Assembly: GCF_050013435.1 (NCBI RefSeq)
Contig: NZ_JBEKFG010000010.1
Span: 8,316-72,315, forward strand
DNA from: Candidatus Binatus sp.
GTDB taxonomy: Bacteria > Desulfobacterota > Binatia > Binatales > Binataceae
DNA length: 64,000 bases
Reading direction: 5' to 3'
In this document: piece by piece, positions 6,457-47,205 of the stretch
How positions within the stretch are numbered: position 1 is the first letter of the stretch
Layout: every line of letters begins with the position of its first letter
Notes under the pieces: generated by a model
The model's database searches: none
What the model was told of the DNA's origin: nothing
The model's input: only the letters and a program-made list of their open reading frames with translations
Position numbers and translations under genes: made by a program

Positions 6457-6490
6457 TTAGGATTCTAAAGATGGACAGGAGACTAAACTA

Positions 6491-7780: not shown

Positions 7781-7830
7781 GCGAGTCAATCCGATAAATC
7801 AGGGGCTTACGCCCCTCCAATAGCTCGAAC

Positions 7831-18840: not shown

Positions 18841-18908
18841 GCATCGGCTCAGCCCTGCCGGTTGGCGGGCGCGGCATGAAGGAAGAATCACCTGCGCGGT
18901 GGGCGGCA

Positions 18909-28800: not shown

Positions 28801-28834
28801 GGCCGTGATAGGAATATTGGCCGCGAGTCTGTAG
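25808..28834 (+). CDS. Giant Wza/KpsD-like polysaccharide export protein (Poly_export + multiple SLBB domains) with a low-complexity N-terminal extension
   Basis: I chose the ATG at 25808 (gggggg lies upstream). Signal peptide ...FLCPSVASA. A Poly_export-like region (FGYSLFAS...YVIGPDDQLKMLMWG) is followed by repeated SLBB-like units (V.V.G.V..PG.Y......V.D.L..AGG). The C-terminal hydrophobic helix is TVSSLAVIGILAASL. Confidence 0.8.
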   Translation: MRSTNKQRVLTTLRSLTFLLALGFLCPSVASAQMGNSGGGGLVGTALGGAGGLAGSGSAAGAQNDGTDSDSSQGASSNAMNRGCVAPGDPNAVNSGLPSCANSDDNSDSDQAAQAGPSTLSGGSSLSGGPSAIGGGQGFGSTINKQSMAAVIQQLGISSDELGSLKSEMSSGGLSSDDMQELCLHFAAKQLGAGDVAGIAKSLGLAFTDQQMSQLKSCTGLAGPGGSDEGPSGVQMGSSSGGSSNQPVSSVESQFRSLDSAAALAAPSTRNLQQFGYSLFASRVSTFAPLGNVPVSDDYVIGPDDQLKMLMWGRINNTINLTVSRDGAVSIPEIGPLQVAGLTFAQAKKLIEDRAGQITGVKVDVTMGKLKTIQVFVVGEVAQPGAYTVSALSHVSNALGAAGGITKIGSLRKVELRRGNQLVRTIDLYSLLLAGNEQGDEQLQPGDVIFVPVIGPVVGMVGDVKRPAIYELGSSGEALSSVIKLGGGISAFGYSQRVQVERVAEHQKRIALDVDLNDIRSQHFDIRDGDLIKIYPVLPAQQDVVIVRGSVNRPGKFEWHQGMRVADLVGLAEGVAPHTFFKYALIRRKEGKAKTVRLVPVDLGEALSANIGEPQNLMLNQEDELTVFSESQMKYLPTVQVFGEVRNPGYYVMSEGMHVSDLLYLAGGLKDDAYQQAAELARTQVVNGSRTSHTFMDIDLRSAMSGTDEHNPVLEANDQLFVRRASDWHLPWVVMVRGMVARPGPYTIHDGERIASVLERSGGLLPDAYLPATVLIRQSIRQLQQQRLDEARARLQQSIVRIQMNPGTISQISQATGNMAAAQNPATSPTTLNALEQVLTETEGQQAQGRLVVHMHPLNELANSPDNVVLVDQDQLTIPRRPAAVNVLGQVYSPNAIVYRPGQTTREYLNQAGGPNEGADPDHIMVIKADGSVMTEDGIKASKQSTMFPLLPVISGGLMTARLDPGDTVYVPEKLIYENKMAETATVTQIIANTVSSLAVIGILAASL

Positions 28835-28854: not shown

Positions 28855-29592
28855 GTGGGGGTTCGGAAAACAATCGTCGCGGCCGCGCTGTCGCTCGCAA
28901 TAATGGGCGCGACTGCGGCACAGGCGCAGCCGGGCCCGGCGGACGGGCGCTCGCGCGCGGACAATGATCGTTTGTTCCACGCCGCGGCCGAGCTCTACAG
29001 CCTCGATCCCGCGCTGCTGGCCGCGATTGCGAGCGTCGAGTCGGGCGGCAATTCAAATGCGGTCTCGCCCAAAGGCGCCCAGGGCCTGATGCAGCTGATG
29101 CCGGCGACGGCGAATCGCTTTGGGGTGCTTGACCCGTTCGATCCGGTCAGCAACACGCTCGGCGCCGTGCGGTTTATCAGTTATCTGCGCCAGTATCGCA
29201 ACGACGGCGGCGCGGGGGCGACTTTGAGCCTGCCCGAGATGCTCGCGGCCTACAACGCGGGCGAGGGCGCAGTCGACAAGTACGGCGGAATCCCGCCCTA
29301 TCCGGAGACCCAGCACTATGTGCGCAAGGTGCTGGTCGCGTATCTGTTCGGCGACAGCCGAAGCCCGCTCGCCGCACGCTTGGGCGCAGGCACGGCACCA
29401 GCAATCGATCCGGCGCCGCGACACATTGGTCCCAGGCGGGCAGTCGGCCATGCGCAGCCGGTCCTGATGCACCAGAAAAATCCGCCGGCAGATTTGATCG
29501 ACCGGCTCACCGAGATCCAGCACCTGCGACAACTCGAGCTGGACCGTCAACAGACCGCCAGCCGCATCGGTGAACCTGATGGCCCTCGTTAG
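28855..29592 (+). CDS. Lytic transglycosylase (SLT domain)
   Basis: Signal peptide, catalytic AIASVESGGNSNAVSPKGAQGLMQLMPATANRFG, and AYNAGEGAVDKYGGIPPYPETQHYV. Confidence 0.85.
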   Translation: MGVRKTIVAAALSLAIMGATAAQAQPGPADGRSRADNDRLFHAAAELYSLDPALLAAIASVESGGNSNAVSPKGAQGLMQLMPATANRFGVLDPFDPVSNTLGAVRFISYLRQYRNDGGAGATLSLPEMLAAYNAGEGAVDKYGGIPPYPETQHYVRKVLVAYLFGDSRSPLAARLGAGTAPAIDPAPRHIGPRRAVGHAQPVLMHQKNPPADLIDRLTEIQHLRQLELDRQQTASRIGEPDGPR

Positions 29593-31255
29593 CACCGCAC
29601 GATCCGCGCACCGCACAAACTTCGCGCTCATGCTGGCGGCGCTCGCGATCGCGTGGTTCGCCCGCCCGGCATTCGCTTCGACATACGCGGCTTACGTTCC
29701 GCTCGACAGCTCGATCTACGACGAGCTCGATACGTTGAACGATCTCGGATTCGCGGACAGCTACATTTCGGAAATCCAGCCCATCACGCGCGTCGAGGCC
29801 GCGCGCATCGCGGTCGAAGCCGAGTCCAAGCTGTCCGAAATGCAGGATCAGAGCGAACTCGCACGCAGTTGCATCAACGCACTGCGGCTCCAGTTGCCCG
29901 ACGAAGTGCAATGGATCGAGCAGGACCACGAAGACAACCTGCCCACGATGTTCCATCCGGTCGAGCGCGTCGAGGGCCAGTACGTTATGTCGCAGGGCAA
30001 GCGCGATCAGATCGAGACCGGCAAGAGTGGACTCGACTACCAGGAAGGAACCCCGCTGCTGCCGAACAACGACAACCTCCCAACCAGCCAGGGGAGCAAT
30101 GAAGTACTGCGGTGGTCGGGATGGACCGGGATTGGCGGCTTCATCACCGGCTACGGCGAAGGCGCGCTGGCGGGTCCGCTGAGCGACAGTCCGAGCCAGG
30201 CAAGCCGGGCGCAACTGTTGACGGGTGCGGTCGTGGTGAGTCTCGGCAACACGGCTATCTCCTTCGGGCAGGAGGAGATGTCATGGGGGGTCGGGCACTA
30301 CAACCAACTTTCGCAGTCCAATAACGCTGCTCCGTTCCCGGCCTTGCGCATCCAGAATATTCATCCGGGCCATCTGCCCGGCATTCTGCGTTACCTGGGG
30401 CTGTATCGGTATCAGGCGTTCCTGGGTCAGCTCAACGCGGATCGAACGTTCGCGCGGCCGTGGCTCTCCGGCCAGGTGATTACCTTCAAAACACTGCCGT
30501 ACCTGGAATGGGGCCTCGATCACGTGATCATGTTCGGGGGCAGCGGCAACGACAATTACAGTCCGCTGCAATTCGTCGGTGACCTGACCGGTCTTTCGAC
30601 GGGAAATTCAGCGGGTGCCAACACCAACACGCGCTTCGGTGTCTTCGCCAAGGTGCGCATCCCGCAGTTGCGCAATACGCAGATTTATGGCGAGGAACTG
30701 GCCGAAGACTTTTTCCTGCCGTTCGGCAAGAGCATCGACTTCAAGCTCCCGTTCAAGGGACCGTCGTACGTTGCCGGAATCTATGTTCCGCAGGTCACGC
30801 TCGACGGGCGCACCACGGCGCGATTCGAATACACACTGACCGACAAAGAGTATTCGGTCCACAACGACTCGCTGTACTGGTCTTACCAGAACGCCCTGAT
30901 GGGCAGTTCGCTGGGGCCGGGCGCGTGGCAGGTCGATTTCGAGATCGATCGATGGCTCAATTTCCAGTCGCGCATCGGCGTGGACGCTTTCTATACTCGT
31001 CGTGCGGCCGACATCGCGGCGGCGACCTTCGATCCGCTTGGACGTAATACCGAGACTGGTTACGGCGTCGCTTTTGACTTGCTCCACCTGCCACTGGAAA
31101 TCAACCCGCTGGCGAATTCGCTCGGCGAGATGAAGGCGCGGGCGGGAATCGAATACGTGAGCGATATCAACTATTCCAACGAGAGCTCTATCCGCGCCCT
31201 TTTCCAGCTCAGTTTCGCGTTAACGCCCTCCTGGGGCGGCCTGGTCTGGCGCTAA
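29570..31255 (+). CDS. Wzi-like capsule-assembly outer-membrane protein
   Basis: Signal peptide ...AWFARPAFA. The N-terminal helical motif PLDSSIYDELDTLNDLGFADSYISEIQPITRVEAARI resembles the Wzi N-terminus, and a long beta-rich region follows. The start could instead be the ATG at 29579. Confidence 0.55.
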   Translation: MNLMALVSTARSAHRTNFALMLAALAIAWFARPAFASTYAAYVPLDSSIYDELDTLNDLGFADSYISEIQPITRVEAARIAVEAESKLSEMQDQSELARSCINALRLQLPDEVQWIEQDHEDNLPTMFHPVERVEGQYVMSQGKRDQIETGKSGLDYQEGTPLLPNNDNLPTSQGSNEVLRWSGWTGIGGFITGYGEGALAGPLSDSPSQASRAQLLTGAVVVSLGNTAISFGQEEMSWGVGHYNQLSQSNNAAPFPALRIQNIHPGHLPGILRYLGLYRYQAFLGQLNADRTFARPWLSGQVITFKTLPYLEWGLDHVIMFGGSGNDNYSPLQFVGDLTGLSTGNSAGANTNTRFGVFAKVRIPQLRNTQIYGEELAEDFFLPFGKSIDFKLPFKGPSYVAGIYVPQVTLDGRTTARFEYTLTDKEYSVHNDSLYWSYQNALMGSSLGPGAWQVDFEIDRWLNFQSRIGVDAFYTRRAADIAAATFDPLGRNTETGYGVAFDLLHLPLEINPLANSLGEMKARAGIEYVSDINYSNESSIRALFQLSFALTPSWGGLVWR

Positions 31256-33552: not shown

Positions 33553-34781
33553 TGCCGCGCGGCCGGCGGCATCCCGCGATGAAAGCGCCGTACCGCGTTG
33601 CGTGCCTGGTCAGCCATCCGATCCAGTACCAGGCGCCGCTGTTCCGCTATCTGGCGGCGCGTCCGGGCATTGAACTGACGGTTTTTTTCCTGAGCGATTT
33701 CTCGATCCGCGCCTATCGCGATTCGGGCTTTGGCGTGAGCGTGAAATGGGATGTGCCGCTGCTCGACGGCTACCGCCACGATTTTCTGCCGCATCTGGGT
33801 TCGGGAAGCGGACTTTCCTTCTGGCGGCCGTGGACGTTCGGGATGCGCACGCGGCTTCGACGCGGGCGATTCGACGCGTTGTGGGTCCACGGCTACGCGC
33901 ATCGCGGATGTATCGCGGGAATCGCGGCGGCGAAGTCCCTGGGCATCCCGGTAATGCTGCGCGGCGAGTCCAATCTGCTCAGCGAGACCGATGACGCGCT
34001 GAAGCTGCGCCTCAAGCGTATCGCGATGCCGGCGCTGCTGCGGACGATTGACGCGTGGCTGGCGATCGGGCGCCTCAATCGCGAATACTATCTTCATTAC
34101 GGCGTCGAAGCCGGCCGAATTTTTTCGATGCCTTACGCGGTGGACAACGAATTTTTTCGCGCCGCGGCGGATCAAGCGCGGCCGCGCCGCGAACGGCTGC
34201 GCGCCGAGCTTGGATTGCATCCGGGGCGCGCGGTGATTCTGTTCGCTTCGAAGATGCAGCCGCACAAGCGCGCCGGCGACCTGCTCGAGGCATACGCGCG
34301 AATGTCGCCCGACGGAGCCGCCGAGCCCGCGGCCTGCCTGGTCTTCGCCGGCGACGGCGAGGAGCGAGCCAAGCTCGAACGCCGCGCGCGCGCGCTGAAG
34401 TGGAACTCGATCCGCTTCATCGGCTTCAGGAACCAATCCGAACTTCCCGCCTTGTACGATCTATCCGACGTATTCGTGCTGCCCTCCGAGCACGAGCCGT
34501 GGGGGCTGGTGATCAACGAAGTAATGAACGCGGGCACGCCGGTCGTCGTGAGCGATCGCGTCGGCGCGGGGCCGGATTTGGTCGAGGACGGCGTCAATGG
34601 ATTCGTGTATCCGGCGCGCGACGTCGCGGCGCTCGCAAATCGGCTGCATCGGATGATCGACAACCCCGAGGATCGCGCCGCGATGGGCGCGCGCGCTCTC
34701 GAAAAAGTTGCGCATCTTGGCTTCGACGCGGACCGAGACGGCTTGCTGTCCGCGCTCGATTCGATTGTCGGGAAGGGGTGA
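33552..34781 (+). CDS. GT4-family glycosyltransferase (GT-B)
   Basis: VLPSEHEPWGLVINEVMNAGTPVVVSDRVGAGPDLVEDGVNGFV. The start overlaps the previous stop by one base (ctGATGc: TGA 33550-33552, ATG 33552-33554). Confidence 0.85.
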   Translation: MPRGRRHPAMKAPYRVACLVSHPIQYQAPLFRYLAARPGIELTVFFLSDFSIRAYRDSGFGVSVKWDVPLLDGYRHDFLPHLGSGSGLSFWRPWTFGMRTRLRRGRFDALWVHGYAHRGCIAGIAAAKSLGIPVMLRGESNLLSETDDALKLRLKRIAMPALLRTIDAWLAIGRLNREYYLHYGVEAGRIFSMPYAVDNEFFRAAADQARPRRERLRAELGLHPGRAVILFASKMQPHKRAGDLLEAYARMSPDGAAEPAACLVFAGDGEERAKLERRARALKWNSIRFIGFRNQSELPALYDLSDVFVLPSEHEPWGLVINEVMNAGTPVVVSDRVGAGPDLVEDGVNGFVYPARDVAALANRLHRMIDNPEDRAAMGARALEKVAHLGFDADRDGLLSALDSIVGKG

Positions 34782-34870
34782 CCCCTTCACCCAGTGTTAA
34801 GGCCGCGCTCCGTTGTCGCGCGCGGCCCCTGCCAACGGCTAAATGCTGCGCTGCCGTCGCCACGAGCAGG
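34778..34870. repeat. Composite intergenic repeat element, partial copy C
   Basis: ggggtgaccccttcacccagtgttaagg parallels aggggtgacccctgcacccggtgttaaga at 18909-18937, and ...gagccctgcc... motifs lie further on. Confidence 0.5.
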
Positions 34871-36230: not shown

Positions 36231-36325
36231 ATGGGAGAGGAATTTGGAATTTGGACCCGCACCCGACGCTCGACGACTCGCGTCGGCCTCGCCCTGTCAG
36301 GGCGGTGCCACGGGCACGCGGCAAA

Positions 36326-36613
36326 GGAAAAGATCCGGGATTCTTCGCTGCGCAGACTCCGCTCTGAATGACAGAAAAGGAAGGAACCGGGATTCTTCGC
36401 TTCGCAGACTCCGCTCTAGAATGACAGAAAAGGAAGGATCCGGAATTCTTCGCTACGCAGACTCCGCTCTGAATGACAGAAAAGGAAAGATCCGGGATTC
36501 TTCGCTTCGCAGACTCCGCTCTGAATGACAGAAAAGGAAGGAACCGGGATTCTTCCCCTTCGGCAGCGCTCAGGGCTTCGGCTCAATCACAGCGACTTTC
36601 GCTCTAGAATGAC
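36326..36613. repeat. Tandem array of a 52-53 bp unit (about 4 full, 1 partial and 1 expanded copy)
   Basis: gaatgac recurs at 36366, 36419, 36471, 36523 and 36607. The unit is gaatgacagaaaaggaagga.ccgggattcttcgct.cgcagactccgctct. Each unit is the right half of the gtcat...gaatgac palindrome. Confidence 0.85.
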
Positions 36614-36643
36614 ACGGGCTGCCGTTCGCTTTTTTCCGTTATC

Positions 36644-37999
36644 GTGAGCGCAATGAAAACTTTGCACCTTCCGTTCTGCTTCTACCCTGATCCGGTTGGT
36701 GGCACCGAGATATACGTCGAATCGCTGGCTACGTGCCTGCGTAAGCTGAACGTTGAGGCGGAAATCGCGGTTCCGGCGCCTGATCAGCGTTCATATCGAT
36801 ACAATGACCTGACGGTGCATCGATTCGCGACCGGTACTCCGAGCTTGGCCGATTTATATGGCCTTGGGGATCCGGTTGCGGCACAGTCGTTTGCAAAGGT
36901 CCTTGAGTCTTGCGCACCCGATGTCGTACACCTGCATTCCTGGACCGCCGGGGTGTCAATCCGGGTATTGCGCATCGCCAAAGCCGCGGGTATCCCGGTC
37001 GTGTTCACCTATCATACGCCCACTGTCAGTTGCGTCCGCGGAACCCTGTTGCGCTGGGGAATCGAGCAATGCGATGGCGACCTGGAGTCATCGCCATGCG
37101 CCGCTTGCATGCTTCACGGCAAAGGACTTAGCCGCCCACTCAGCATTGCATTAGCCAGTCTGCCGGTCGCGATAGGCGAACGGATCGGCAAGCTCGGGCT
37201 GGAAGGAAGACTGATGACGGCGGTGCGCGCGTCGGAACTTATACATCTGCGCAAAGACGCGCTAACGGGTCTGTTCGACGAAGCTGACGCATTAGTCGCG
37301 GTGTGCAACTGGGTTTACGATTTGATGCTGCGAAATGGCGTGGACAAGTCGAAGCTGACAATCTCGCATCATGCATTGCGCAACTCGCCGCAACTGAACT
37401 ATCCAGGCGAACCGCGAAGGGCTGGTGACGATATCCGCATTGCCTTCCTGGGCAGGCTGGCGCGCGAGAAGGGTATCGATATTCTGCTCGCGGCGATGCG
37501 GCGAATCAGCAGCCCCCGGCTCAAGCTCGATATATTCGGCATCGCAAATGACAGCGAAGCGCAGTCCGTCAAGCAAACAGTGGTGGACGCAGCCGATCAG
37601 CGCATCCGGCTGCTCCCGCCCTTTGCCAACGTGAATGCGATATCCGAACTTCGCGGATACGATTGTCTCGCCGTCCCCTCGCAATGGTTGGAGACCGGTC
37701 CGCTGGTAGTGCTGGAGGCATTCGCCGCGGGTATTCCGGTCATTGGTTCCAACCTGGGTGGAATCGCGGAACTTGTGGAGCACGAGAAAAACGGGTTGCT
37801 GGTCGAGCCTGCTTCAATCGAGGCCTGGGTCGCGGCGTTGAATCGATTGCTAACGGAACCCGGGCTGCTGCCCCGGCTTCGACTTGGGATCCCGAAGAGT
37901 CGAACGATGGAGCAAGTCGCCGGCGAGATGTTAACCGTGTACCGCAAGCTCGCGCCCACGGTTGCGCCGTTGGCCAGCCTGGAGAATCGCCCGCAATGA
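36644..37999 (+). CDS. GT4-family glycosyltransferase (GT-B)
   Basis: MKTLHLPFCFYPDPVGGTEIYVESL..., C-terminal AVPSQWLETGPLVVLEAFAAGIPVIGSNLGGIAELVEHEKNGLL. GTG at 36644, or ATG at 36653. It ends ...ENRPQ with an ATGA overlap into the next gene. Confidence 0.85.
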   Translation: MSAMKTLHLPFCFYPDPVGGTEIYVESLATCLRKLNVEAEIAVPAPDQRSYRYNDLTVHRFATGTPSLADLYGLGDPVAAQSFAKVLESCAPDVVHLHSWTAGVSIRVLRIAKAAGIPVVFTYHTPTVSCVRGTLLRWGIEQCDGDLESSPCAACMLHGKGLSRPLSIALASLPVAIGERIGKLGLEGRLMTAVRASELIHLRKDALTGLFDEADALVAVCNWVYDLMLRNGVDKSKLTISHHALRNSPQLNYPGEPRRAGDDIRIAFLGRLAREKGIDILLAAMRRISSPRLKLDIFGIANDSEAQSVKQTVVDAADQRIRLLPPFANVNAISELRGYDCLAVPSQWLETGPLVVLEAFAAGIPVIGSNLGGIAELVEHEKNGLLVEPASIEAWVAALNRLLTEPGLLPRLRLGIPKSRTMEQVAGEMLTVYRKLAPTVAPLASLENRPQ

Positions 38000-39027
38000 A
38001 AGTGTCGGTCGTGATTCCCACCTATAACGACGAAGGCACGATTGCGGCCACGGTGGAGAGCGCGCTGGCGCAGCGGTTCGACGGAGCGTTCGAGGTGATC
38101 GTCGTCAATGACGGATCGACCGACGGCACGCGCGGGATACTGGCAAAATTCGGCGATCGGATCCGGGTGATCGATCAAAAGAACTCGGGCGTGTCGGCGG
38201 CGCGCAACGCCGGTATCAGAGCGGCGTCGGGCGAATATATCGCGCTGCTGGACGGCGACGATGCCTTTACCGAGGACAAGCTTCAGAAGACGGTGCCGGT
38301 GCTCGATGAAAATCCGGCGTGCGTGGCGGTGGCTTCGAACGTGATCGGGGTGGACGGCGCGGGCAGGGTCGTTTCGTACCCGGTTACGCCGGAATTCCGG
38401 CATTCACCGACGCTCGACGAGATGCTCGATCGGCTGTGGGCGTACCTGCCCAGCGCGTGCGTCATCCGGCGCGAGACGCTGGTGGCGATCGGCGGCTTTT
38501 CGGAAGAATTCAAACCGGAACATTACGCCTGCGAGGACACTTTCATTATGCTGCTGGTGCGCGAGCGCGGTGAAATTCGGTACGTGCCCGAGACGCTGGT
38601 CCGGTACCGTTACCGGGAATTTCGCGAACATCTCGCCAACCGGCTGCGCAGCCGGCGCCTCGAGATCGATTCAGCGCAGGCATTTCGCGAGTTCGAGCGC
38701 CGCTACGAGGCAAACCTCATCCTTGCGCGATTGACGCTGGAGCATTTCGGCGCTCGCGGCCGTAAACTTGCAGCCTTGGCGATCGATAGCGTCGCACGCG
38801 AACTGATCGGAGTCGGGTTGATGGCGATGTACGAGGGCGATCGCACGCTTGCCCGGCGATGCTACCGCGCGTCGATTCGCTATAATCCGCGGATGCTGAA
38901 GACCTATTTCCGGCTGGGGTGGGCGATGCTGCCCGCCAAAGTTGCGGAAATGCTGTCGCCGATGCTTCCGCATGGGTTGCGGCGCAGCCTGTCAGGCCCG
39001 CCGGTTTTCGAGGAACGCCCGCAATGA
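37996..39027 (+). CDS. GT2-family glycosyltransferase, cassette a, with conserved C-terminal tail module
   Basis: MKVSVVIPTYNDEGTI..., DGSTDGT, DxD LDGDD, tail ...GLMAMYEGDRTLARRCYRASIRYNPRMLKTYFRLGWAML...LRRSLSGPPVFEERPQ. ATGA overlaps at both ends. Confidence 0.9.
   Translation: MKVSVVIPTYNDEGTIAATVESALAQRFDGAFEVIVVNDGSTDGTRGILAKFGDRIRVIDQKNSGVSAARNAGIRAASGEYIALLDGDDAFTEDKLQKTVPVLDENPACVAVASNVIGVDGAGRVVSYPVTPEFRHSPTLDEMLDRLWAYLPSACVIRRETLVAIGGFSEEFKPEHYACEDTFIMLLVRERGEIRYVPETLVRYRYREFREHLANRLRSRRLEIDSAQAFREFERRYEANLILARLTLEHFGARGRKLAALAIDSVARELIGVGLMAMYEGDRTLARRCYRASIRYNPRMLKTYFRLGWAMLPAKVAEMLSPMLPHGLRRSLSGPPVFEERPQ
38959..39027 (+). repeat. Junction element J1
   Basis: ccgatgcttccgcatgggttgcggcgcagcctgtcaggcccgccggttttcgaggaacgcccgcaATGA. 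Confidence 0.85.
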
Positions 39028-40055
39028 AAGTGTCGGTCGTGATTCCCACCTATAACGACGAAGGCACGATTGCGGCCACGGTGCATAGCGCGCTGGCGCA
39101 GAAGTTCGAGGGCGGGTTCGAGGTGATCGTCGTCAACGACGGCTCGACCGACGGCACGCGCGGGATACTGGCAAAATTCGGCGATCGGATCCGGATGATC
39201 GATCAAGAGAACCTGGGGGTGTCGGCGGCGCGCAACGCCGGTATCAGAGCGGCGTCGGGCGAATACATCGCGCCCTTGGACGGCGACGATACGTGGACGG
39301 AGGACAAGCTTCAGAAGACGGTGCCGGTGCTCGACAAAAATCCGGCGTGCGTGGCGGTGTATTCGAACGTGATCGTGCTGGACGGCGCGGGCAGCGAACT
39401 TTGGTGCTGTGTTCCACCCGAATTCCAGCATTCGCCGACGCTCGACGAGATGCTCGATCGGGTGTGGGTGTATCTGCCCAGCGCGACCGTCATCCGGCGG
39501 GATACGCTGCTGGCGATCGGCGGATACTCGGAGGAATTCGCGGCGGGACATTACGGCTTCGAGGACACTTTCATTATGCTGCTGGTGCGCGAGCGCGGCG
39601 GAATCATGTTCCTGCCTGAGACGCTGGCGCGGCGCCCGTTCAGGGAATTCGCCACAAAGTACGCCAACCGGCTGCGCAGCCGGCGCTTCGAGATCGATTC
39701 GGCGGAAGCATTCAGCGAGTTCGAGCGCCGATTCGAGGGGAGCACTGTCTTTGCACGACTGGTGCGCGAGCACTTCGGCGCTCGCGGCCGCAAAATTGCA
39801 AAGTCGGCGGTCCATGGCGCCGCGAGCGAGTTGGTCGGAGTCGGGTTGATGGCGATGCACGACGGCAATCGCGGGTTCGCGGGGCGATGCTACCGCGCAT
39901 CGATTCGCTACAGACCGCTGATGTTGAAGACCTATTGCCGGCTGGGATGGGCCATGCTTCCCGGCAAAGTTGCGCAGCGCCTCTCCCCGATGCTTTCGCC
40001 GGGGCTGCGGCGCAGCCTGACAGGTCCTCCGGTTTTGGAAGAACGTCCGCAATGA
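39024..40055 (+). CDS. GT2-family glycosyltransferase, cassette b
   Basis: Same head (MKVSVVIPTYNDEGTIAATV) and tail (...RRSLTGPPVLEERPQ) as cassette a. Identity by eye is ~75-80%. Confidence 0.9.
   Translation: MKVSVVIPTYNDEGTIAATVHSALAQKFEGGFEVIVVNDGSTDGTRGILAKFGDRIRMIDQENLGVSAARNAGIRAASGEYIAPLDGDDTWTEDKLQKTVPVLDKNPACVAVYSNVIVLDGAGSELWCCVPPEFQHSPTLDEMLDRVWVYLPSATVIRRDTLLAIGGYSEEFAAGHYGFEDTFIMLLVRERGGIMFLPETLARRPFREFATKYANRLRSRRFEIDSAEAFSEFERRFEGSTVFARLVREHFGARGRKIAKSAVHGAASELVGVGLMAMHDGNRGFAGRCYRASIRYRPLMLKTYCRLGWAMLPGKVAQRLSPMLSPGLRRSLTGPPVLEERPQ
39987..40055 (+). repeat. Junction element J2
   Basis: ccgatgctttcgccggggctgcggcgcagcctgacaggtcctccggttttggaagaacgtccgcaATGA. Confidence 0.85.
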
Positions 40056-41071
40056 AAGTGTCGGTCGTAATTCCCACCTATAACAACGAAGGCACAATTG
40101 CGGCCGCAGTGGAGAGCGCGCTGGCGCAGAAGTTCGAGGGCGGGTTCGAGGTGATCGTCGTCAACGACGGATCGACCGACGGCACCGCCGAGGTCCTGCG
40201 CGGCTTCGGCGATCGCATCAAGGTGGTCGCGCAGCCCAATCGCGGGTGCGCAGCCGCAAGAAACGCCGCGGTGCGAAACTCAGCAGGAAAATACCTGGCG
40301 TTCCTCGATGCCGACGACGAATGGCTGCCGGAAAAGCTCGCGAAGACCGTATCGACGCTCGAGGGCGACTCAAATTGCGGGCTGGCCTATTCGGACGCCG
40401 CGCTGGTGGATTCGCGCGGCGTGCCCAGGAATCATTCGTATATTGCCGCGGGGTATTCCCGCGAGCCTTCATTGGACGACCTGCTGCGTGAGTGGTGGTG
40501 GATCCTGCCGAGCACAGCAGTGATGCGCCACTCGATCTACGATCGCTGTGGCGGTTTTGCCGAAGAATTCGGGCCGCGCGACTACGGCGGCTCCGACGTC
40601 CTGATGTGGATACGGGCGCGAGACCGCGCGCCCTTCCACTTCATTCGCGAGCAGCTCGTCCGCTATCAGCTAGCCGATCCCGTGGCCCATCTCGCGAAGC
40701 GGATTCCAAACTTCCCTGGAGGACCGAACGACGGCGGACCAGACATCCGCGCTCGGTCGCTGGTCCATGGAGAGGAGATTCTTATTCGCCTGGTCCGCCG
40801 CGAGTATGGCCGCAGAGCGCGAGGCCTCATTAGCAATCACCGCACAAAACAGGCCGAGATGCTGACCGTCGCGGGGATGCTGGCGATCAATCAGGGCAAC
40901 GCGCGCTTTGCGCGCGACTGCTACCTCGAAGCGCTGAAGCGGCGACCGCTCCAGTTGAAGCTGCCGTTTCGACTGGCGTGGACCTTGGTCCCGTCCTCGC
41001 TCGCCCGTCCGATCGCAGCGGTGCTGCCGCGGAGGATTGCGCGCGCTCTGTGCGGTCCTCCAGCGATTTGA
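40052..41071 (+). CDS. GT2-family glycosyltransferase, cassette c (divergent paralogue)
   Basis: It has the same 5' head (MKVSVVIPTYNNEGTIAAAVESALAQKFEGGFEVIVVNDGSTDGT). The rest is much more diverged, and the tail is recognisable but decayed (...RLAWTLVPSSLARPIAAVLPRRIARALCGPPAI). Confidence 0.85.
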   Translation: MKVSVVIPTYNNEGTIAAAVESALAQKFEGGFEVIVVNDGSTDGTAEVLRGFGDRIKVVAQPNRGCAAARNAAVRNSAGKYLAFLDADDEWLPEKLAKTVSTLEGDSNCGLAYSDAALVDSRGVPRNHSYIAAGYSREPSLDDLLREWWWILPSTAVMRHSIYDRCGGFAEEFGPRDYGGSDVLMWIRARDRAPFHFIREQLVRYQLADPVAHLAKRIPNFPGGPNDGGPDIRARSLVHGEEILIRLVRREYGRRARGLISNHRTKQAEMLTVAGMLAINQGNARFARDCYLEALKRRPLQLKLPFRLAWTLVPSSLARPIAAVLPRRIARALCGPPAI

Positions 41072-41135: not shown

Positions 41136-42401
41136 TTGAATCATTCAAACCGTTCAAACCCTGGTGGCTACCAAGCGGCAAATATGAGCAGGCAAATGGC
41201 TGGAGGCACGCTTGGGCCGGACGTTCCTAAACCCTTGCCTAAAGCCTTGCCTAAAATCGTGCAGAAGGCTGCGGAATACAATCTAACGGAACACTGCAAC
41301 CTGAGATGCGCAGGTTGCAGTCATAGCTCGGAGCTTTTGCCGAAGAAATTTGCCGAGGTGAAGGAATTTCAACGCGACTTAGCCGTGCTTTCGCAGGTGC
41401 TGCATCTTAATGAGTTGAGACTCTTAGGGGGCGAGCCCTTGTTGCACCCCGATTTGCTGGAGTATCTGCGATGTGCGCGCGCGAGCGGGCTTGCAGAAGA
41501 GATAACCTTGAGCACCAACGGCCTGCTCCTGCATCGCTGCGATCCGGCGACATTTGAGCTGATTGATCGGTTGCGGGTCAGCCTTTACCCCGGTGTCAGG
41601 CTCCGAGTTGAAGAGCGTGAGCTCGAATCCTTATCGAGAAGATATAACTTTAAGCTGGAGCTTAAAAGAGTTGACAGCTTCAGAGTTACCACGCTCAACA
41701 GCCGCCATCGGGATGCCAGCTTGGTGCGGCGAATCTTCAGGCAGTGCGCCTTGGCGCATGACTGGAGCTGCCACACAGTTCATCAAGGTTACTACTTCAA
41801 ATGTTCGCCGGCTCCTTTTCTGCAAGGCCGAATGGCGCTCAGAGGTGAGTCGGTCCTGAACCGCGATTTAGACGGGGTGAGGATTCATGACAACCCGCGA
41901 CTCAGAGAAGAGTTGGAAGCCTACTTGCGCGACGAGGAACCGCTCGAGGCGTGTTACTATTGTCTCGGCTCGTCCGGACGCAGGTTTCCTCATCGACAGT
42001 TGAATAGCAAAAAATTGCGCGAAGAGATTGACCGGAGCGGGAAACTGCGCGACCCACCGGCAGACCCGCAGCGGCACGTCAGAGGATACCATGCGTGGGC
42101 GCGGCTGATGCACGAGCGATTCGGCGCTCGCGCCCGCAGCCTTGCGGACTATGCAATCGATTCGATAGCGCACGAGCAAGTGGCCATGGGAATGATGGCG
42201 ATGCATGAAGGCGATCGCAGGTTCGCGCGGCGATGTTACCTGAGCTCGCTCCGCAACCGGCCGTTGAAGCTGAAGACCTACGTTAGGCTGGCGTGGGCGA
42301 CTGTGCCGGCGAGCGTCACGCAAATGCTGTCACCGATGCTCGCGCCGGGGCTGCGGCGCAGCCTGTCAGGTCCGCCGTTTTTGGAAGAACGTCCGCAATG
42401 A
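41136..42401 (+). CDS. Radical SAM enzyme carrying the GT2-cassette C-terminal tail module (chimeric architecture)
   Basis: CX3CX2C motif HCNLRCAGC (nt 41295-41318), GGEPLLHP, a later Cys pair CYYC. The last ~105 aa, FGARARSLADYAIDS...GMMAMHEGDRRFARRCYLSSLRNRPLKLKTYVRLAWATVP...LRRSLSGPPFLEERPQ, are homologous to the GT2 tails. TTG start at 41136; an ATG alternative lies ~50 nt downstream. Confidence 0.75.
   Translation: MNHSNRSNPGGYQAANMSRQMAGGTLGPDVPKPLPKALPKIVQKAAEYNLTEHCNLRCAGCSHSSELLPKKFAEVKEFQRDLAVLSQVLHLNELRLLGGEPLLHPDLLEYLRCARASGLAEEITLSTNGLLLHRCDPATFELIDRLRVSLYPGVRLRVEERELESLSRRYNFKLELKRVDSFRVTTLNSRHRDASLVRRIFRQCALAHDWSCHTVHQGYYFKCSPAPFLQGRMALRGESVLNRDLDGVRIHDNPRLREELEAYLRDEEPLEACYYCLGSSGRRFPHRQLNSKKLREEIDRSGKLRDPPADPQRHVRGYHAWARLMHERFGARARSLADYAIDSIAHEQVAMGMMAMHEGDRRFARRCYLSSLRNRPLKLKTYVRLAWATVPASVTQMLSPMLAPGLRRSLSGPPFLEERPQ
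42333..42401 (+). repeat. Junction element J4
   Basis: ccgatgctcgcgccggggctgcggcgcagcctgtcaggtccgccgtttttggaagaacgtccgcaATGA. Confidence 0.85.
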
Positions 42402-43435
42402 AAGTGTCGGTCGTGATTCCCACCTATAACAACGAAGGCACAATTGCGGCCACGGTGGAGAGCGCGCTGGCGCAGCGGTTCGAGGCCAAGTTCGAGGTGA
42501 TCGTCGTCAACGATGGATCGACCGACAGCACGCGCGGGATACTGGCAAAATTCGGCGATCGGATCCGCGTGATCGATCAAAAGAACTCGGGCGTGTCGGC
42601 GGCGCGCAACGCCGGCATCAGAGCGGCGTCGGGCGAATATATCGCGCTGCTGGACGGCGACGATACGTGGAATGAAGACAAGCTTCAGAAGACGGCGCCG
42701 GTGCTCGATGAAAATCCGGCGTGCGCGGCGGTATTCTCGGATGTGATGCAGGTGGACGGCGCGGGCAAGGAATATGGAACCTGGGTTTCACCCGAATTCC
42801 AGCATTCGCCGACGCTCGACGAGATGCTTGAGTGGCCGTGGCCGAACCTGCCCAGCGCGACCGTCATACGGCGGGAGACGATCATGGCGATCGGCGGTTT
42901 CTCGGAGGAATTCGGCCGTCGCGGATACGGCGGCGAAGACACGTTCGCGGCCCTGCTGGTGCGGGAGCGGGGCGAAATTCACTTCGTGCCGGATAAACTG
43001 GTGCGCTACCGGCTTTCGGACTTTAACGGGAATTTGGCCAAGCGGATCCGCTCGCGCGACAGCAACCAAAGCGGGATCGATCAGTTCGAAGAGCCGGAGC
43101 GGCTGAGCGACGGGCTTTTGATTTTTGCACGACTGGTGCGCGAGCATTTCGGCGCTCGCGGCCGCAAACTTGCAGAATGGGCGATCGATAAGCTCGCGAA
43201 CGAGCTGATCGCAGTCGGGATGACGGCGATGCACGAGGGCGATCGCACGCTTGCGCGGCGATGCTATCGCGCGTCGCTTCGCTACAGACCGCTGATGTTG
43301 AAGACTTATTTCCGGCTCGGGTGGGCCATGCTTCCCGCCAAAGTTGCGGGAATGCTGTCCCCGATGCTTCCGCCGCGGCTGCGGCGCAGCCTGTCAGGTC
43401 CGCCGTTCCATGGCTTGCCGGATCGCCCGCAATGA
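42398..43435 (+). CDS. GT2-family glycosyltransferase, cassette d
   Basis: Head MKVSVVIPTYNNEGTIAATVESALAQRF, LDGDD, tail ...LRRSLSGPPFHGLPDRPQ. Confidence 0.9.
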   Translation: MKVSVVIPTYNNEGTIAATVESALAQRFEAKFEVIVVNDGSTDSTRGILAKFGDRIRVIDQKNSGVSAARNAGIRAASGEYIALLDGDDTWNEDKLQKTAPVLDENPACAAVFSDVMQVDGAGKEYGTWVSPEFQHSPTLDEMLEWPWPNLPSATVIRRETIMAIGGFSEEFGRRGYGGEDTFAALLVRERGEIHFVPDKLVRYRLSDFNGNLAKRIRSRDSNQSGIDQFEEPERLSDGLLIFARLVREHFGARGRKLAEWAIDKLANELIAVGMTAMHEGDRTLARRCYRASLRYRPLMLKTYFRLGWAMLPAKVAGMLSPMLPPRLRRSLSGPPFHGLPDRPQ

Positions 43436-43466
43436 ATCGGAAATCATGAACATCCTGGAACGAGCC
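43361..43466 (+). repeat. Junction element J5 (long form)
   Basis: ccgatgcttccgccgcggctgcggcgcagcctgtcaggtccgccgttccatggcttgccggatcgcccgcaATGAatcggaaatcATGAacatcctggaacgagcc. Confidence 0.85.
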
Positions 43467-43549
43467 AGCGCTGCGCCTGAGATCAGAAACGGCGCATGGC
43501 TAACTCGACGCAGATGGGTCGATAAGTCGATATCAAGAGGAACGCGCTG

Positions 43550-44422
43550 ATGCCGCTTGCAGGGCGCATGCTTCGAGCAGTGCGATTGCACCGACCGGCG
43601 CTCTGGTGTTACTGGAGGTGCCGCCATGCAGGCGAGTATCTGCAGAGCCTGGGCGTAGCACGCGGGCTGATCGCTATGTTTGTACTGCGCACCCGTCCGG
43701 GAGCGTCCGGTCGCACGCTGGGACTACTGATTCCGGGTTCTCGAAGACCATTTTTCCTGCGAGGCGGAACCGCCGATGTCAGGGTGTTCCGGCAGATTTT
43801 TATGGAACGGCAATACGATGTGGAGGTCTCGCCCGAGCCGCGCCTCATAATCGATGCAGGCGCCCATATTGGGTGCGCGAGCGTGTTCTTTGCTTGCAGG
43901 TACCCGCAGGCCACCATCCTGGCAATAGAACCAGAGGCGGCCAACTTCGAGATGCTGCGCAGGAATGCCGCCCCTTACCGCAACATCGTGCCGATCCGCG
44001 CGGCCATATGGGGACGGCCTGACGTTCTTGCAATCGCAAATCCAAGCGATGAATCGTGGCGATTTCAGACTCGGCAAGCAACGGCAGCCGAGGTCGATAC
44101 CGTGGTCGGGATCACGATTGAGGAGCTGCTAAGATGGACGGGCGCACCCTTGATCGACATACTCAAGATCGACATCGAAGGGGCTGAAAAACAGCTGTTC
44201 TCCGCCCCGTGTGATCGTTGGCTCGGCCGGGTATGTGCGATGTTCGTCGAACTGCACGACCGTTTTGAGCCTGATTGCGGGGAGGCCCTTCGGCGGGCCA
44301 CGGCGCCCTACGGTTTCGTCGAATCGCAGCGGGGCGAAGACGTTATCCTGCGGCGCGACTGTACGATGGAGATCAACCGCCATCTCGAAGGGAGAGGCAA
44401 TGTTTGGGACGCCCCCATTTGA
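43550..44422 (+). CDS. FkbM-family methyltransferase
   Basis: IIDAGAHIGCASVFFACRYPQATILAIEPEAANFEMLRRN and IDILKIDIEGAEKQLF. Confidence 0.8.
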   Translation: MPLAGRMLRAVRLHRPALWCYWRCRHAGEYLQSLGVARGLIAMFVLRTRPGASGRTLGLLIPGSRRPFFLRGGTADVRVFRQIFMERQYDVEVSPEPRLIIDAGAHIGCASVFFACRYPQATILAIEPEAANFEMLRRNAAPYRNIVPIRAAIWGRPDVLAIANPSDESWRFQTRQATAAEVDTVVGITIEELLRWTGAPLIDILKIDIEGAEKQLFSAPCDRWLGRVCAMFVELHDRFEPDCGEALRRATAPYGFVESQRGEDVILRRDCTMEINRHLEGRGNVWDAPI

Positions 44423-44610
44423 TCCTCACCGACCATCGCCTCGCATACTACTATCGCCAGAACCTCATGATGTTTGCCTCCGACGAAGGCGCGGTAGCGC
44501 ATCCGCCTTGGCGGCGTACTCCGGGGCGCTTGAAACCCTCGGCCTCGAATGGGGCCACGCCCCGGTCCACGAGCTGGCTCTAAGTGACCGCGCGATTCTT
44601 TTGCGCGCGC

Positions 44611-44710
44611 CCGATGCTTTCGCCGCGGCTGCGGCGCAGCCTGTCAGGTTCACCGTTTTTGGAAGAACGTCCGCAATGAATCGGCAATCATGAACATCCT
44701 GGAACGAGCC
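44611..44710 (+). repeat. Junction element J6 (long form, lies outside any credible CDS)
   Basis: ccgatgctttcgccgcggctgcggcgcagcctgtcaggttcaccgtttttggaagaacgtccgcaATGAatcggcaatcATGAacatcctggaacgagcc. It begins ~190 nt after the FkbM stop at 44422. Confidence 0.85.
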
Positions 44711-44731
44711 CGTCTTCTACCCGGTTAACTC

Positions 44732-46387
44732 ATGACCAACGCCGTCGCCGCGTCTCACACGCCGGGTCTTCCCGGACGCGCCAATACCCAAAGCCGCGAG
44801 CCGCGTGGCGAGCTGATTCGATGGTTTTCGAAACCGGCGACTGCGCTTGCGCTCATCGTCGTGTCCGGCGCGGCGCTGCGAATCCTAAAAATCACCGACT
44901 ACAGCCTCTGGGGTGACGAGGGCTTCAGCGCCGCTATCGTGATGCAGCCGTGGCGCCCATTTTGGCTGTCGATACTTTACGAGCCATGGACCGCGTTTTA
45001 CTTCGTGCTCTTGAAACCCTGGACGCTCTGTTTTGGGACCGGCGAGGTGGCGCTGCGCTCGTTGTCGGTAGTGTTGGGCCTCGTGGCTATCGTGGCGATC
45101 TATTATCTCGGTGAGCGGCTCTTCAGCCGCCGGGCAGGATTGATCGCGGCCGCGATGACCGCCGTCAGCCCGGTGCAAATCTGGTATTCCCAGGAGGTGC
45201 GCGGCTATTCGCTCTATGTACTTCTGAGCGCCCTGTGCTGGCTCGCGTTTCTGGCGGCTCTTCACAATTCCCGGCCGCGAAATCTGAGCATATGGTCCGT
45301 GCTGATGGTGCTCATGGGTTATTGCCATTTTATTGGATTGGGCATTATCCCCGCGCAATGGGTCTGCATCGCGATTCGGCGTCCCGATTTATCCTCCGTC
45401 AAGCGCCTCGCTCTGGCGACCGCGGCCGCCGCAGTCGCTTTGGCGCTAATTCCGATTTTCATGGTGACGCTGAACTCCGGACAGGCAGGCTGGATTGCTC
45501 CGCTTTCATGGGCGGAGATCGCCGATGTTTTCGTGACAGTCTCAGGTGGGCTTCACGGCAATGCCGGTGCGATTTTCTGCCTGACTTATGTCCTGCTTCT
45601 GATCTGGGCCTTTCTCGGGTCATTTCAAAAGGGCAACGATCGGTCAGGATGGGAGAGTTGCGCATTTGCGTCAGCCGGATTTCTGGTTCCGATCATGGCA
45701 ACGATTGCGGGCGGGTTTTTCGTGCCGATGCTGATGGGGCGGTATCTCCTGCTTTGCTTTCCGCCTTTCGTAGTACTCGCCGCGCAAGGCCTTTTGACTG
45801 TTCGCCCGCGGAAGGCAGCGCTCATCGTGGTCGCCGCACTTGTCGCCTTGACCGCGTGGGAACTGCGCGACTCCTACAATTTAGAATCACGGGATGACTG
45901 GCGCAGCACGGCTCAATACGTGATGAGGCACGGCCAACCCGGCGACGCTGCGATTTTCGTCACTCCGGAGTGCCGCTACGCGTTCCAATATTACGCCGCA
46001 CGAGAACCAAACACTGCTGCCTTCCCCGTTATACTGGGCGAGAACCGCGACCTCGTGGACGGGATTCGAATCGTGACGAATCGGTTCCCGTCCTATACCA
46101 GCGGCGTGCTGGGGAAGGTCGGTTCACTCCCGAAGAGTTACCGTCGCATTTGGCTCATGAAGCCGGGCAGTATTGATCTCGATCCGCGCGACCCGAACAA
46201 ACGGGAATCCGTGCAGTTGGCTGCCGCGCTGGCGCACGAATACCGGACCCATCCTCCAGTCATCTTCAACGGAGTATCGGTGTGGCTCTACGACACGCCC
46301 GATGCTTCCGCCGCTGCTGCGGCGCAGCCTGTCAGGTCCGCCGTTCCACGGCTTGCCGCAGCGCCCACAATGAATCGGAAATCATGA
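44732..46387 (+). CDS. Polytopic membrane glycosyltransferase, GT-C fold (GT39/ArnT/PMT_2-like)
   Basis: About 12 predicted TM segments, a first-loop acidic motif YSLWGDEGFSA, and ...GEVALRSLSVVLGLVAIVAIYYLGERLFSRRAGLIAAAMTAVSPVQIWYSQEVRGYSLY. The C-terminus reads through junction J7 in a different frame (DASAAAAAQPVRSAVPRLAAAPTMNRKS). Confidence 0.7.
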   Translation: MTNAVAASHTPGLPGRANTQSREPRGELIRWFSKPATALALIVVSGAALRILKITDYSLWGDEGFSAAIVMQPWRPFWLSILYEPWTAFYFVLLKPWTLCFGTGEVALRSLSVVLGLVAIVAIYYLGERLFSRRAGLIAAAMTAVSPVQIWYSQEVRGYSLYVLLSALCWLAFLAALHNSRPRNLSIWSVLMVLMGYCHFIGLGIIPAQWVCIAIRRPDLSSVKRLALATAAAAVALALIPIFMVTLNSGQAGWIAPLSWAEIADVFVTVSGGLHGNAGAIFCLTYVLLLIWAFLGSFQKGNDRSGWESCAFASAGFLVPIMATIAGGFFVPMLMGRYLLLCFPPFVVLAAQGLLTVRPRKAALIVVAALVALTAWELRDSYNLESRDDWRSTAQYVMRHGQPGDAAIFVTPECRYAFQYYAAREPNTAAFPVILGENRDLVDGIRIVTNRFPSYTSGVLGKVGSLPKSYRRIWLMKPGSIDLDPRDPNKRESVQLAAALAHEYRTHPPVIFNGVSVWLYDTPDASAAAAAQPVRSAVPRLAAAPTMNRKS

Positions 46388-46404
46388 ACATCCTGGAACG
46401 AGCC
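46299..46404 (+). repeat. Junction element J7 (long form)
   Basis: ccgatgcttccgccgctgctgcggcgcagcctgtcaggtccgccgttccacggcttgccgcagcgcccacaATGAatcggaaatcATGAacatcctggaacgagcc. Confidence 0.85.
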
Positions 46405-47205
46405 GGCGCTGCAATCCGTCACGCACCGGGGTTGGAACATGCCGACTGGCTGTGGGACCGGATCCGGCCTGCGTACGATCGGATGCTGGCGACAATTGCG
46501 CGTGGTCACGGCCTGGAACGGGTGATCAATGGCACTGACACGATCCGCCTGAGCCCGCAGTCGCGTGGGTTCGTTGCGCAAGAGTATGAACCGGCGGTCT
46601 GGGGCCGCGTGATGCACGAAGTCAGGACGGGCGACCAGGTGGTGGAAGTCGGCGCAAGTTTTGGACTCTACGCGCTGGCGTTCGCGGGACGAGTCGGGGA
46701 GGCGGGCCATGTCACGGCGTTCGAACCCGATCCTCAGAGTGCCTCGGCTCTGGAAGCCAACGTCAGAGTCAACGGCTGGCAAGACAGAATAACCGTGATC
46801 AGAGCCGCGGTCGGCCAGCGCAGCGGACAAGTCCGCTTTGCCGCGGCGCGGGGAATGGAATCGCGAATCGAGACGCGTTCGGATTCGGGCGACGGCGTGA
46901 TTACGGTGCCGCTTGTCACGCTCGACGGGCAGCTGGCCGGCGGGAGAATCGATGTCATGAAAATCGACGTCGAGGGCTTCGAGCAGCAGGTTATCCAGGG
47001 TGCGCGAACGATCCTGACTGAACAGCATCGGCGTCCCCGGGCGATCCTGCTGGAAGTGCATCCTTTCGCGTGGGCGGAGACGGGCACGACCAGCGCGAGC
47101 TTTCTCGGCCTGCTGGATGAATTGGGCTTCAAAGTCGAGGATATGGGGGGCGCCGCGGTTTCGAGCATCAGCGAATACGGGCACGTGATCGCGCTTCGGA
47201 AATGA
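46384..47205 (+). CDS. FkbM-family methyltransferase
   Basis: The start MNILERAG lies within J7. VVEVGASFGLYALAFAGRVGEAGHVTAFEPDPQSASALEANV and IDVMKIDVEGFEQQVIQGA. Confidence 0.8.
   Translation: MNILERAGAAIRHAPGLEHADWLWDRIRPAYDRMLATIARGHGLERVINGTDTIRLSPQSRGFVAQEYEPAVWGRVMHEVRTGDQVVEVGASFGLYALAFAGRVGEAGHVTAFEPDPQSASALEANVRVNGWQDRITVIRAAVGQRSGQVRFAAARGMESRIETRSDSGDGVITVPLVTLDGQLAGGRIDVMKIDVEGFEQQVIQGARTILTEQHRRPRAILLEVHPFAWAETGTTSASFLGLLDELGFKVEDMGGAAVSSISEYGHVIALRK

Follow-up and report, generated by a model that had tools for sequence, protein, structure and literature searches.

Tandem paralogues undergo concerted evolution and non-allelic homologous recombination. In capsule and O-antigen clusters, such as the group 3 kps clusters of Escherichia coli, shared sequences in the variable region are recombination hot spots (PMC10433991). 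The minimal mobile elements of Neisseria are alternative cassettes that lie between conserved flanks, carry no mobility genes and are thought to be moved by homologous recombination (Saunders & Snyder 2002, cited in PMC1797815). The locus described here occupies part of a 64-kb stretch of contig NZ_JBEKFG010000010.1 from Candidatus Binatus sp. This whole stretch is termed the window, and all coordinates refer to it. By Pfam scan, the locus is a cluster for polysaccharide export and assembly of the Wza/Wzi type, in which an element of 70–115 nt is present in six copies between 38958 and 46412 on the + strand. The element is best explained as the natural boundary between a tandemly amplified GT2 gene and the methyltransferase gene FkbM2, and not as an independent functional DNA module. 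Its copies are very probably recombination scars, which serve as homology tracts in a hypervariable capsule or exopolysaccharide locus. The host of this variable locus is a Binatia-like peat bacterium.

The resemblance to kps clusters lies in a serotype-type variable region rich in glycosyltransferases, in the origin of new forms by recombination between shared sequences, and in the sharp change of identity at breakpoints (PMC10433991). Unlike in those clusters, the shared sequence is a gene-boundary stub of 70–115 nt with up to six copies per cluster, not a whole gene, and the variation occurs in uncultured Binatia-like soil and peat populations without known serotypes or phenotypes. As with the Neisseria elements, alternative cassettes are found at the same position: nine architectures lie between GT4a and FkbM2/GT4b. 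The Neisseria flanks are conserved housekeeping genes exchanged by natural transformation (PMC1797815), whereas the flanks here are short duplicated stubs inside an operon, and intragenomic deletion and conversion are also evident. The array of tandem 1028-nt GT2 genes resembles other concertedly evolving paralogues in its genome-specific shared variants and in a copy number that varies between relatives. It departs from the usual case in that conversion tracts reach orphan stubs outside the GT2 genes, one of them read in another frame. The locus adds a well-resolved case, from an uncultured lineage, to a process already known, and reveals no new class of element or mechanism. Its interest is as a nucleotide-resolved example of a surface-polysaccharide locus that diversifies its gene content without mobile-element genes, the end stubs of a duplicated gene being the crossover points. 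A handful of metagenomes already display the nine cluster architectures.

Downstream of the export genes runs a long same-strand array of glycosyltransferase, methyltransferase, carbamoyltransferase and GDP-mannose dehydratase genes (Pfam); the genes that bear the element all lie on the + strand (table 1). The order is GT4a, GT2-a, GT2-b, GT2-c, then the radical SAM gene and GT2-d, followed by a stub open reading frame (ORF) with FkbM1 and a 187-nt remnant, and by GT-C, FkbM2, GT4b and GT4c. Pairwise identity among the GT2 paralogues is 72–92%. A 21-nt core of the element, GCTGCGGCGCAGCCTGTCAGG, has six matches with at most one mismatch (at 38976, 40004, 42350, 43378, 44628 and 46316; 0.03 in shuffled sequence). 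A 36-nt downstream part, AATGAATCGGAAATCATGAACATCCTGGAACGAGCC, has three (at 43431, 44675 and 46369; none expected). The element is composite. A tail part of approximately 70–76 nt comprises GT2 codons and a stop, and is followed by a downstream part of approximately 30 nt. The latter is the GT2 start ATGAAAGTG in copies J2–J4 and ATGAATCGGAAATCATGAACATCCTGGAACGAGCC in J5–J7, where it contains a five-codon mini-ORF and the first seven codons of FkbM2 (MNILERA). All six copies fall inside 7.5 kb of one operon, and five of them overlap coding sequence.

Two kinds of copy can be distinguished. In junction alignments of J2–J5, homology runs on upstream through the whole GT2 gene; at J4 it covers the final ~100 codons of the radical SAM gene, a stretch that encodes a GT2 C-terminal domain. 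In J6 and J7, homology to the other copies starts abruptly at CCCGATGCTT. The 200-nt flanks of these two copies are 50–55% identical to the flanks of the others, compared with 52.6% for random window pairs, whereas their tails are 73–94% identical to the other tails. The 30 nt after the tail are 97–100% identical among J5, J6 and J7, and J5 and J7 agree at 95% over 115 nt. The element is translated as ..PML..[LI]RRSL[ST]GPP..RPQ-stop in GT2-a, GT2-b, the radical SAM gene and GT2-d; GT-C reads J7 one frame over, as DASAAAAAQPVRSAVPRLAAAPTMNRKS-stop. J6 starts 187 nt after the FkbM1 stop (44422) and the only ORF over it, placed there by gene callers, is one of 97 aa (44400–44693), which has no Pfam match and is interrupted by an in-frame TAG in the related contig L031. 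An earlier note on this DNA, made from its letters alone, had described one stretch read in different frames and an orphan J6 outside any credible gene that keeps both ATGA motifs, and had proposed the comparison with the 200-nt flanks. These observations are confirmed, flank identity being at the random level; the ATGA pair, though present in J6 (ATG 44676 and ATG 44690), is not conserved in relatives. Its count of seven copies reduces to six full ones, as J1, at the GT4a/GT2-a boundary (37996), shares only about the last 15 nt and the GT2 start. The similarity at DNA level irrespective of frame holds for J6 and J7, J2–J5 being plain 3′ ends of whole-gene paralogues.

As read in the GT2 frame, the tail is a genuine protein feature of the whole family. 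The C-terminal 116 residues of GT2-d, searched exhaustively, matched 76 representative clusters, mostly proteins of ~340 aa at their C-terminus, and many alignments extend through the tail. This search was needed to reveal the family: a word-indexed protein search with the C-terminal domain gave only 10 short fragments or orphan C-terminal ORFs. Homologues at 30–40% identity align in a shared LPxR[LI]xRxLxG-PP just before the C-terminus. They include GT2-c of the window, which keeps the motif as protein only (..LPRRIARALCGPPAI-stop), its DNA having diverged from the element. Of the 24 copies compared across nine loci, the 18 that form the GT2-frame end of a gene all keep [LI]RRSL[STA]GPP. The motif is broken through P-to-S and R-to-C changes in two scar copies, window J6 (GSP) and J7 of the related genome L012 (LCRSLSGSP). 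These are the two older scars, in which constraint on the original frame is relaxed; younger scar copies still have an intact RRSL.GPP motif. The radical SAM gene is a chimera, with PF04055 at residues 28–127 and a last ~100 residues that share homology with the C-terminal helical domain of GT2 and include its tail motif. This fusion seems lineage-specific, because nearly all of the 76 representative matches to the domain are ~340-aa GT2 proteins.

Related loci were obtained in three ways. (i) A pattern scan of the GTDB species set found the element in two of 185,579 species genomes, both related metagenome-assembled genomes (MAGs; L011 and L012), and there at this locus, to which the element is confined. 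(ii) A metagenome scan gave L020, L023, L030, L031 and L036; 18 of its 24 matches were chance matches without similarity to the window. (iii) Two protein look-ups gave L038 and L039. The label of L013, which carries a distant GT-C homologue, is Candidatus Binataceae; that of the closer MAGs is ‘Deltaproteobacteria’. The difference among the nine related architectures, which come from MAGs and metagenome contigs of Binatia-like soil and peat bacteria, is one of whole genes between the conserved GT4a and FkbM2/GT4b. L038, the most distant of them, has GT4a and four GT2 copies, the first fragmented, which lead directly to FkbM2 with one ATGA overlap (CGCAATGAACATCCTGGAG). L039 has GT2, the element and FkbM2. 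L031 has GT2-a, GT2-d, FkbM1 with the remnant, the element and FkbM2. GT-C is absent from these three. L011 corresponds to the window minus 42403–44610 (GT2-d and FkbM1), and the copy before GT-C forms the end of its radical SAM gene. L012 has GT2-a, a class-I methyltransferase gene with a 177-nt GT2 3′ remnant, GT2-b, GT-C and FkbM2; GT2-c through FkbM1 are missing, and GT2-b is joined directly to a J6-type copy and GT-C. L030 combines three GT2 copies, a degenerate element and an internally deleted FkbM2, and in L023 and L036 GT2-d is followed by a GT2-c-like gene. FkbM1 is present in the window and L031, and not in L011, L012, L038 or L039.

The breakpoints of these differences coincide with the element. 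In BLAST comparison of the window with relatives, alternative alignments overlap by 70–71 nt, and the overlap is exactly the element (70 nt in L011); a single hybrid element stands at each deletion or join junction in L011, L012 and L031. Most differences in gene content between the closest relatives have their breakpoints inside the element. The copy that matches J6 is a functional gene 3′ end elsewhere, belonging to the radical SAM gene in L011 and to GT2-b in L012. As the alternative alignments overlap at exactly the element, the counterpart of J6 in these two genomes is therefore a functional gene end, which has been orphaned only in the window lineage. The GT2/FkbM2 boundary of L038, which lacks GT-C, appears to be of the ancestral type.

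Identity was compared at the same position among the window, L011 and L012. Between genomes GT-C is 94–97% and FkbM2 90–97% identical, and the downstream parts of the element are 96–100% identical. The J6 tail reaches 82–83% and the J7 tail 73–79%. Selection on the tail nucleotides is not supported, because no other segment is as weakly conserved between orthologous loci as the J7 tail. The J7 tails of L011 and L012 are A-type; window J7 carries the B-type tail, which is native to GT2-d orthologues in four loci. Window J7 is 93% identical to window J5 and 97% to the L031 copy (L031-J67), and about 72% to L012-J7 at the same position. Three A-type copies of L011 (J3, J46 and J7) share the L011-specific variants GGTCCTGGAG, and J46 and J7 also share GGATTGAATC, which abolishes the first ATG. 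Copies within a genome are thus more alike than same-position copies between genomes, a pattern that points to gene conversion and homologous recombination, not to purifying selection on the DNA. Window J6 is a mosaic of an L031-like left part and an L012-J7-like right part (with the GGTTCACCG variant, otherwise found in L012 J7), and window J7 is the reciprocal mosaic. Such mosaics would be expected if crossing over took place in the core GCGGCGCAGCCTGTCAGG. There, a GT-C segment with an element copy on either side may have recombined into an L031-like remnant/element/FkbM2 junction, by way of a circular intermediate or through exchange between genomes.

These comparisons also sort the explanations put forward in the earlier note, which had named selection or homogenization acting on the nucleotide sequence and, as candidates, a recombination site, an RNA structure or very recent gene conversion. 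Homogenization and recent gene conversion agree with the likeness of copies within genomes, and nucleotide selection disagrees with a J7 tail at 73–79% beside genes at 90–97%. The recombination site stands in the sense of a substrate for general homologous recombination, and the RNA structure fails (see below). That selection on a protein domain is no explanation is correct for J6 and J7 and overstated for the element as a whole, the tail being a motif of the GT2 family that is invariant in the gene-attached copies.

A general mechanism can be proposed. (i) The original boundary would consist of a tail part encoding the GT2 C-terminal motif LPxRLRRSLSGPP and a stop, and a downstream part providing stop/start overlaps and the first seven FkbM2 codons. 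(ii) Cargo (GT-C, FkbM1, the class-I methyltransferase of L012 and the radical SAM domain) was probably inserted into surplus GT2 copies or at this boundary or close to it. (iii) Each insertion would have left a GT2 3′-end stub on the right side of the cargo; those of FkbM1, GT-C and the L012 methyltransferase would also have left an FkbM2 5′-end stub on the left. (iv) As direct repeats of 70–115 nt with 85–95% identity, the stubs presumably offer substrates to general homologous recombination of the RecA type and to gene conversion. (v) Recombination between stubs would delete, insert or reshuffle whole genes, and overwrite one copy with another. At the level of assembled sequence, comparison of related genomes shows that such reshuffling and overwriting occur at the repeats. 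J6 and J7 are then likely to be copies left at the borders of inserted cargo genes, J6 having been the 3′ end of whichever gene preceded GT-C. J7 would extend the GT-C ORF by 28 out-of-frame codons, to a TGA that overlaps the FkbM2 start. For annotation this is a warning: the 28-residue C-terminal extension of GT-C and the 97-aa ORF over J6 would be by-products of recombination and not protein features.

The ends of the stubs bear on how the cargo arrived. GT2 3′ stubs measure ~300 nt in the radical SAM gene, 177 nt at the L012 methyltransferase and 71–77 nt at GT-C. The FkbM2 5′ stubs to the left of FkbM1, GT-C and the L012 methyltransferase end variously after GAGCC, GAGCCAGCGCTGC or GAGCCAGCGTTGCA. 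Because the stub ends differ between cargo genes, separate illegitimate events without a defined site are indicated. The distant GT-C of L013 ends natively in ..LLYDTPAASERSAMGTPRVSH-stop, 18 codons after a shared ..LYDTP, and has no RRSL motif. The DNA of this native end, TACGACACGCCCGCCGCTTCCG (..TACGACACGCCCGCCGCTTCCGAGCG..), matches the window junction TACGACACGCCCGATGCTTCCG (TACGACACGCCCGATGCTTCCGCCGC), and the match is microhomology at the left edge of J7, where the element begins. The best match of the 187-nt remnant between FkbM1 and J6 is to the FkbM2 C-terminus, at 29% over 65 aa (E = 5.4), and is not significant.

Table 1. Features of the polysaccharide locus (window coordinates).
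Feature	Coordinates	Strand	Remarks
Poly_export/SLBB	25712–28834		Pfam
Wzi	29570–31255		Pfam
GT2-a	37996–39027	+	PF00535; first of four tandem GT2 paralogues; last ~70 nt (38958–39028) are copy J2; TGA overlaps GT2-b ATG
GT2-b	39024–40055	+	3′ end (39986–40056) is copy J3
GT2-c	40052–41071	+	divergent paralogue; without the element at DNA level
Radical SAM gene	41196–42401	+	PF04055 in N-terminal part only; 3′ end (42332–42402) is copy J4
GT2-d	42398–43435	+	6-nt-longer B-type tail (..PPFHGLPDRPQ-stop), native to GT2-d orthologues
J5	43360–43474	+	GT2-d tail, two ATGA (first: ATG 43432, stop 43433–43435; second: ATG 43446), 5-codon mini-ORF, FkbM2-type start MNILERA
Stub ORF, 34 codons	43446–43550	+	opens with FkbM2 start (MNILERAS..); stop overlaps FkbM1 ATG
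FkbM1 methyltransferase	43550–44422	+	candidate cargo gene; Pfam
Non-coding remnant, 187 nt	44423–44609	+	between FkbM1 and J6
J6, orphan copy	44610–44710	+	A-type tail (44610–44680), then downstream part
Upstream ORF, 12 codons	44690–44728	+	MNILERARLLPG-stop; truncated FkbM2 start; ends 3 nt before GT-C ATG
GT-C (PMT_2) glycosyltransferase	44732–46387	+	candidate cargo gene; Pfam; last 28 codons are J7 in +1 frame
J7	46298–46412	+	B-type tail; frame-0 stop 46371–46373; at second ATGA, GT-C stop (46385–46387) overlaps FkbM2 ATG (46384)
FkbM2 methyltransferase	46384–47205	+	Pfam; first ~21–35 nt travel with the element

Several points weigh against the interpretation of the copies as recombination scars. 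J6 (in the window and L031) and J7 share an identical left edge, CG followed by CCCGATGCTT; this is attributed to copying of one original junction, the alternative being a preferred breakpoint. The comparison contigs L038 and L039 have fragmented ORFs and resemble long-read assemblies with many errors. The architectures by themselves do not reveal in which order the changes came about or which of them were insertions and which deletions, and no recombination intermediates were observed in these static assemblies. The downstream part (96–100%) is more conserved than the neighbouring coding DNA, so that part of the element is under some nucleotide selection, for which translation initiation is the most plausible reason. 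Only this downstream part of J6 and J7 looks constrained, and its stop/start overlaps may couple the translation of FkbM2 and GT-C to the upstream gene.

The alternative that survives best, an unlikely one, develops this last point: the junction would be a dedicated cassette ‘adaptor’, independent of any recombinase and selected both as a homology handle and as a source of ready-made stop/start overlaps for inserted cargo. FkbM1, GT-C and the L012 methyltransferase are all bracketed by the same left (FkbM2 start) and right (GT2 tail) stubs, the radical SAM gene carries the right stub, and the downstream part is conserved between genomes above the level of its flanks. Both ATGA motifs are present in J5, J6 and J7 of the window. 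They form a relay in which the tail frame stops at the first ATGA and the +1 frame at the second, and the third frame reads into the next gene. GT-C has no evident Shine–Dalgarno sequence, and for this reason its translation may proceed by reinitiation or coupling; a conserved 12-codon upstream ORF ends 3 nt upstream of its ATG, and the segment that holds this ORF (44681–44731) is 96–98% conserved in L011 and L012. However, at scar positions the tail part changes more rapidly than the sequence on either side of it, and the relay is not conserved: L011 has ATTGA in two junctions, before and after GT-C, L030 has ACGA, and L038 a single ATGA. Stub lengths vary between cargo genes as they would for accidents and not for a defined module, and the element is limited to one locus in a narrow lineage. 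In its fullest form the proposal is somewhat more doubtful still. The GT2-tail/FkbM2-start junction could then be a selected ‘plug-and-play’ operon adaptor, a recombinase-free cassette system in which whatever gene comes to lie between two copies acquires a handle for RecA-mediated gain, loss and exchange between strains, and a chain of overlapping stop/start codons and mini-ORFs through which its translation is coupled into the capsule operon. If true, glycan-modifying genes would have in this adaptor a functional counterpart of integron cassettes.

A detail of the ATGA pair emerges from L038 (13397–13460), where the GT2/FkbM2 boundary is a single ATGA overlap. Relative to it, the double ATGA of the window lineage corresponds to a 14-nt insertion, TCGGAAATCATGAA, which duplicates ATGAA and creates the mini-ORF MNRKS. 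Other rearrangements are seen in the relatives. In L030 (reverse strand, 4217–4360) an in-frame internal deletion of FkbM2 joins its first eight codons to the last ~39 (MNILERAG, then TTSASFLGLLDEMGF..ALRK-stop), and at the junction the first ATGA is mutated to ACGA, so that the GT2 ORF runs to the second ATGA. In L023 (618–920) GT2-c is internally deleted to a 47-codon 5′ stub and its last ~45 nt, upstream of the radical SAM gene; this rearrangement occurs without the junction element. The class-I S-adenosylmethionine methyltransferase gene of L012 (7816–8921), a cargo gene not found in the window, takes its last codons (..AAMLPRVDSL-stop) out of frame from the 177-nt remnant of the GT2-a 3′ end, and is a second case of a cargo ORF that ends inside a GT2 stub in a foreign frame.

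A cis-acting RNA under purifying nucleotide selection, whether a processing site, a stabilizer or a regulator of translation, is very improbable. The element does lie at the gene boundaries of a long operon, and a small hairpin of 6 bp, GGCUGC-GGC-GCAGCC, is present in almost all copies. This is the only consistent hairpin, however, and it coincides with the invariant GLRRS codons. Fold z-scores for the six copies on the + strand and for J6 and J7 on the − strand range from −1.66 to +0.85 and are not significant, and the folds differ between copies. RNAalifold on 19 copies gives no compensatory pairs and a covariation term of −0.1. At the gathering threshold of Rfam the only match in the window is a tRNA at 10784, with none at the element; no promoter-like or terminator-like sites were found at the junctions, and orthologous J7 tails only 73–79% identical do not suit a conserved RNA.

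A site-specific recombination site, of the integron attC kind or similar and served by a dedicated recombinase encoded elsewhere in the genome, is slightly more improbable again. The arrangement recalls integron cassettes, in which single genes of one orientation are separated by a repeated element of ~60–140 nt, here one of ~100 nt, and the whole-gene differences between strains fall at the element. Unlike in integrons, no integrase or recombinase domain was detected by Pfam among 29 large ORFs scanned in the window (several of which have no match of any kind), and the element shows no imperfect palindrome of the attC type and no significant single-strand fold on either strand. No fixed crossover is apparent in the few events available. 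The mosaics place one crossover within the core GCGGCGCAGCCTGTCAGG; the inferred points of crossover are spread over the element, and each cargo gene has its own stub ends. The homology of J2–J5 spans whole genes, and the repeated sequence is the coding end of a conserved protein family. A dispersed repeat, similar to repetitive extragenic palindromic (REP) sequences or miniature inverted-repeat transposable elements, was rejected: the copies are confined to one operon, are mostly coding, occur in only two of the 185,579 genomes and contain no inverted repeats.

The view that the RRSLSGPP frame is the true end of GT-C and that J6 is part of a gene, with a sequencing or assembly error or a real frameshift mutation behind the present reading, is scarcely credible: eight independent metagenome assemblies of this strain, from different samples, show no difference in the J5, J6 and J7 regions, L011 and L012 also read J7 in the +1 frame, the L013 GT-C lacks the RRSL motif, and in L031 a stop interrupts the ORF over J6. 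The frameshift error that the earlier note had named as its possible undoing is accordingly excluded. Programmed frameshifting that would give GT-C an RRSLSGPP tail was also set aside, as the frame-0 motif appears degraded in L012-J7 (LCRSLSGSP) and the L013 GT-C has no such tail.

Repeats of other kinds occur in the window. Upstream of GT4a, four to five tandem repeats of ~52 nt (36323–36574) contain GCTCTGAATGACAG, and a related 36-nt motif (..CGCTCTAGAATGACAC..) is found at 19099–19134 and 36589–36624. A palindromic intergenic motif of ~31 nt, GGCAGGGGTGACCCCTGCACCCGGTGTTAAG, occurs four times, within 18905–19168 and at 34771–34801, and L011 and L012 carry it in the equivalent intergenic spaces; it is a candidate REP-like element or terminator. 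Three tandem units of ~1.5 kb (4740–9301), 81–88% identical, each encode a DUF1329/LolA-like protein of 429–431 aa; they are accompanied by conserved intergenic segments of 50–90 nt and lie downstream of an HlyD/MacB-type ATP-binding cassette (ABC) exporter.

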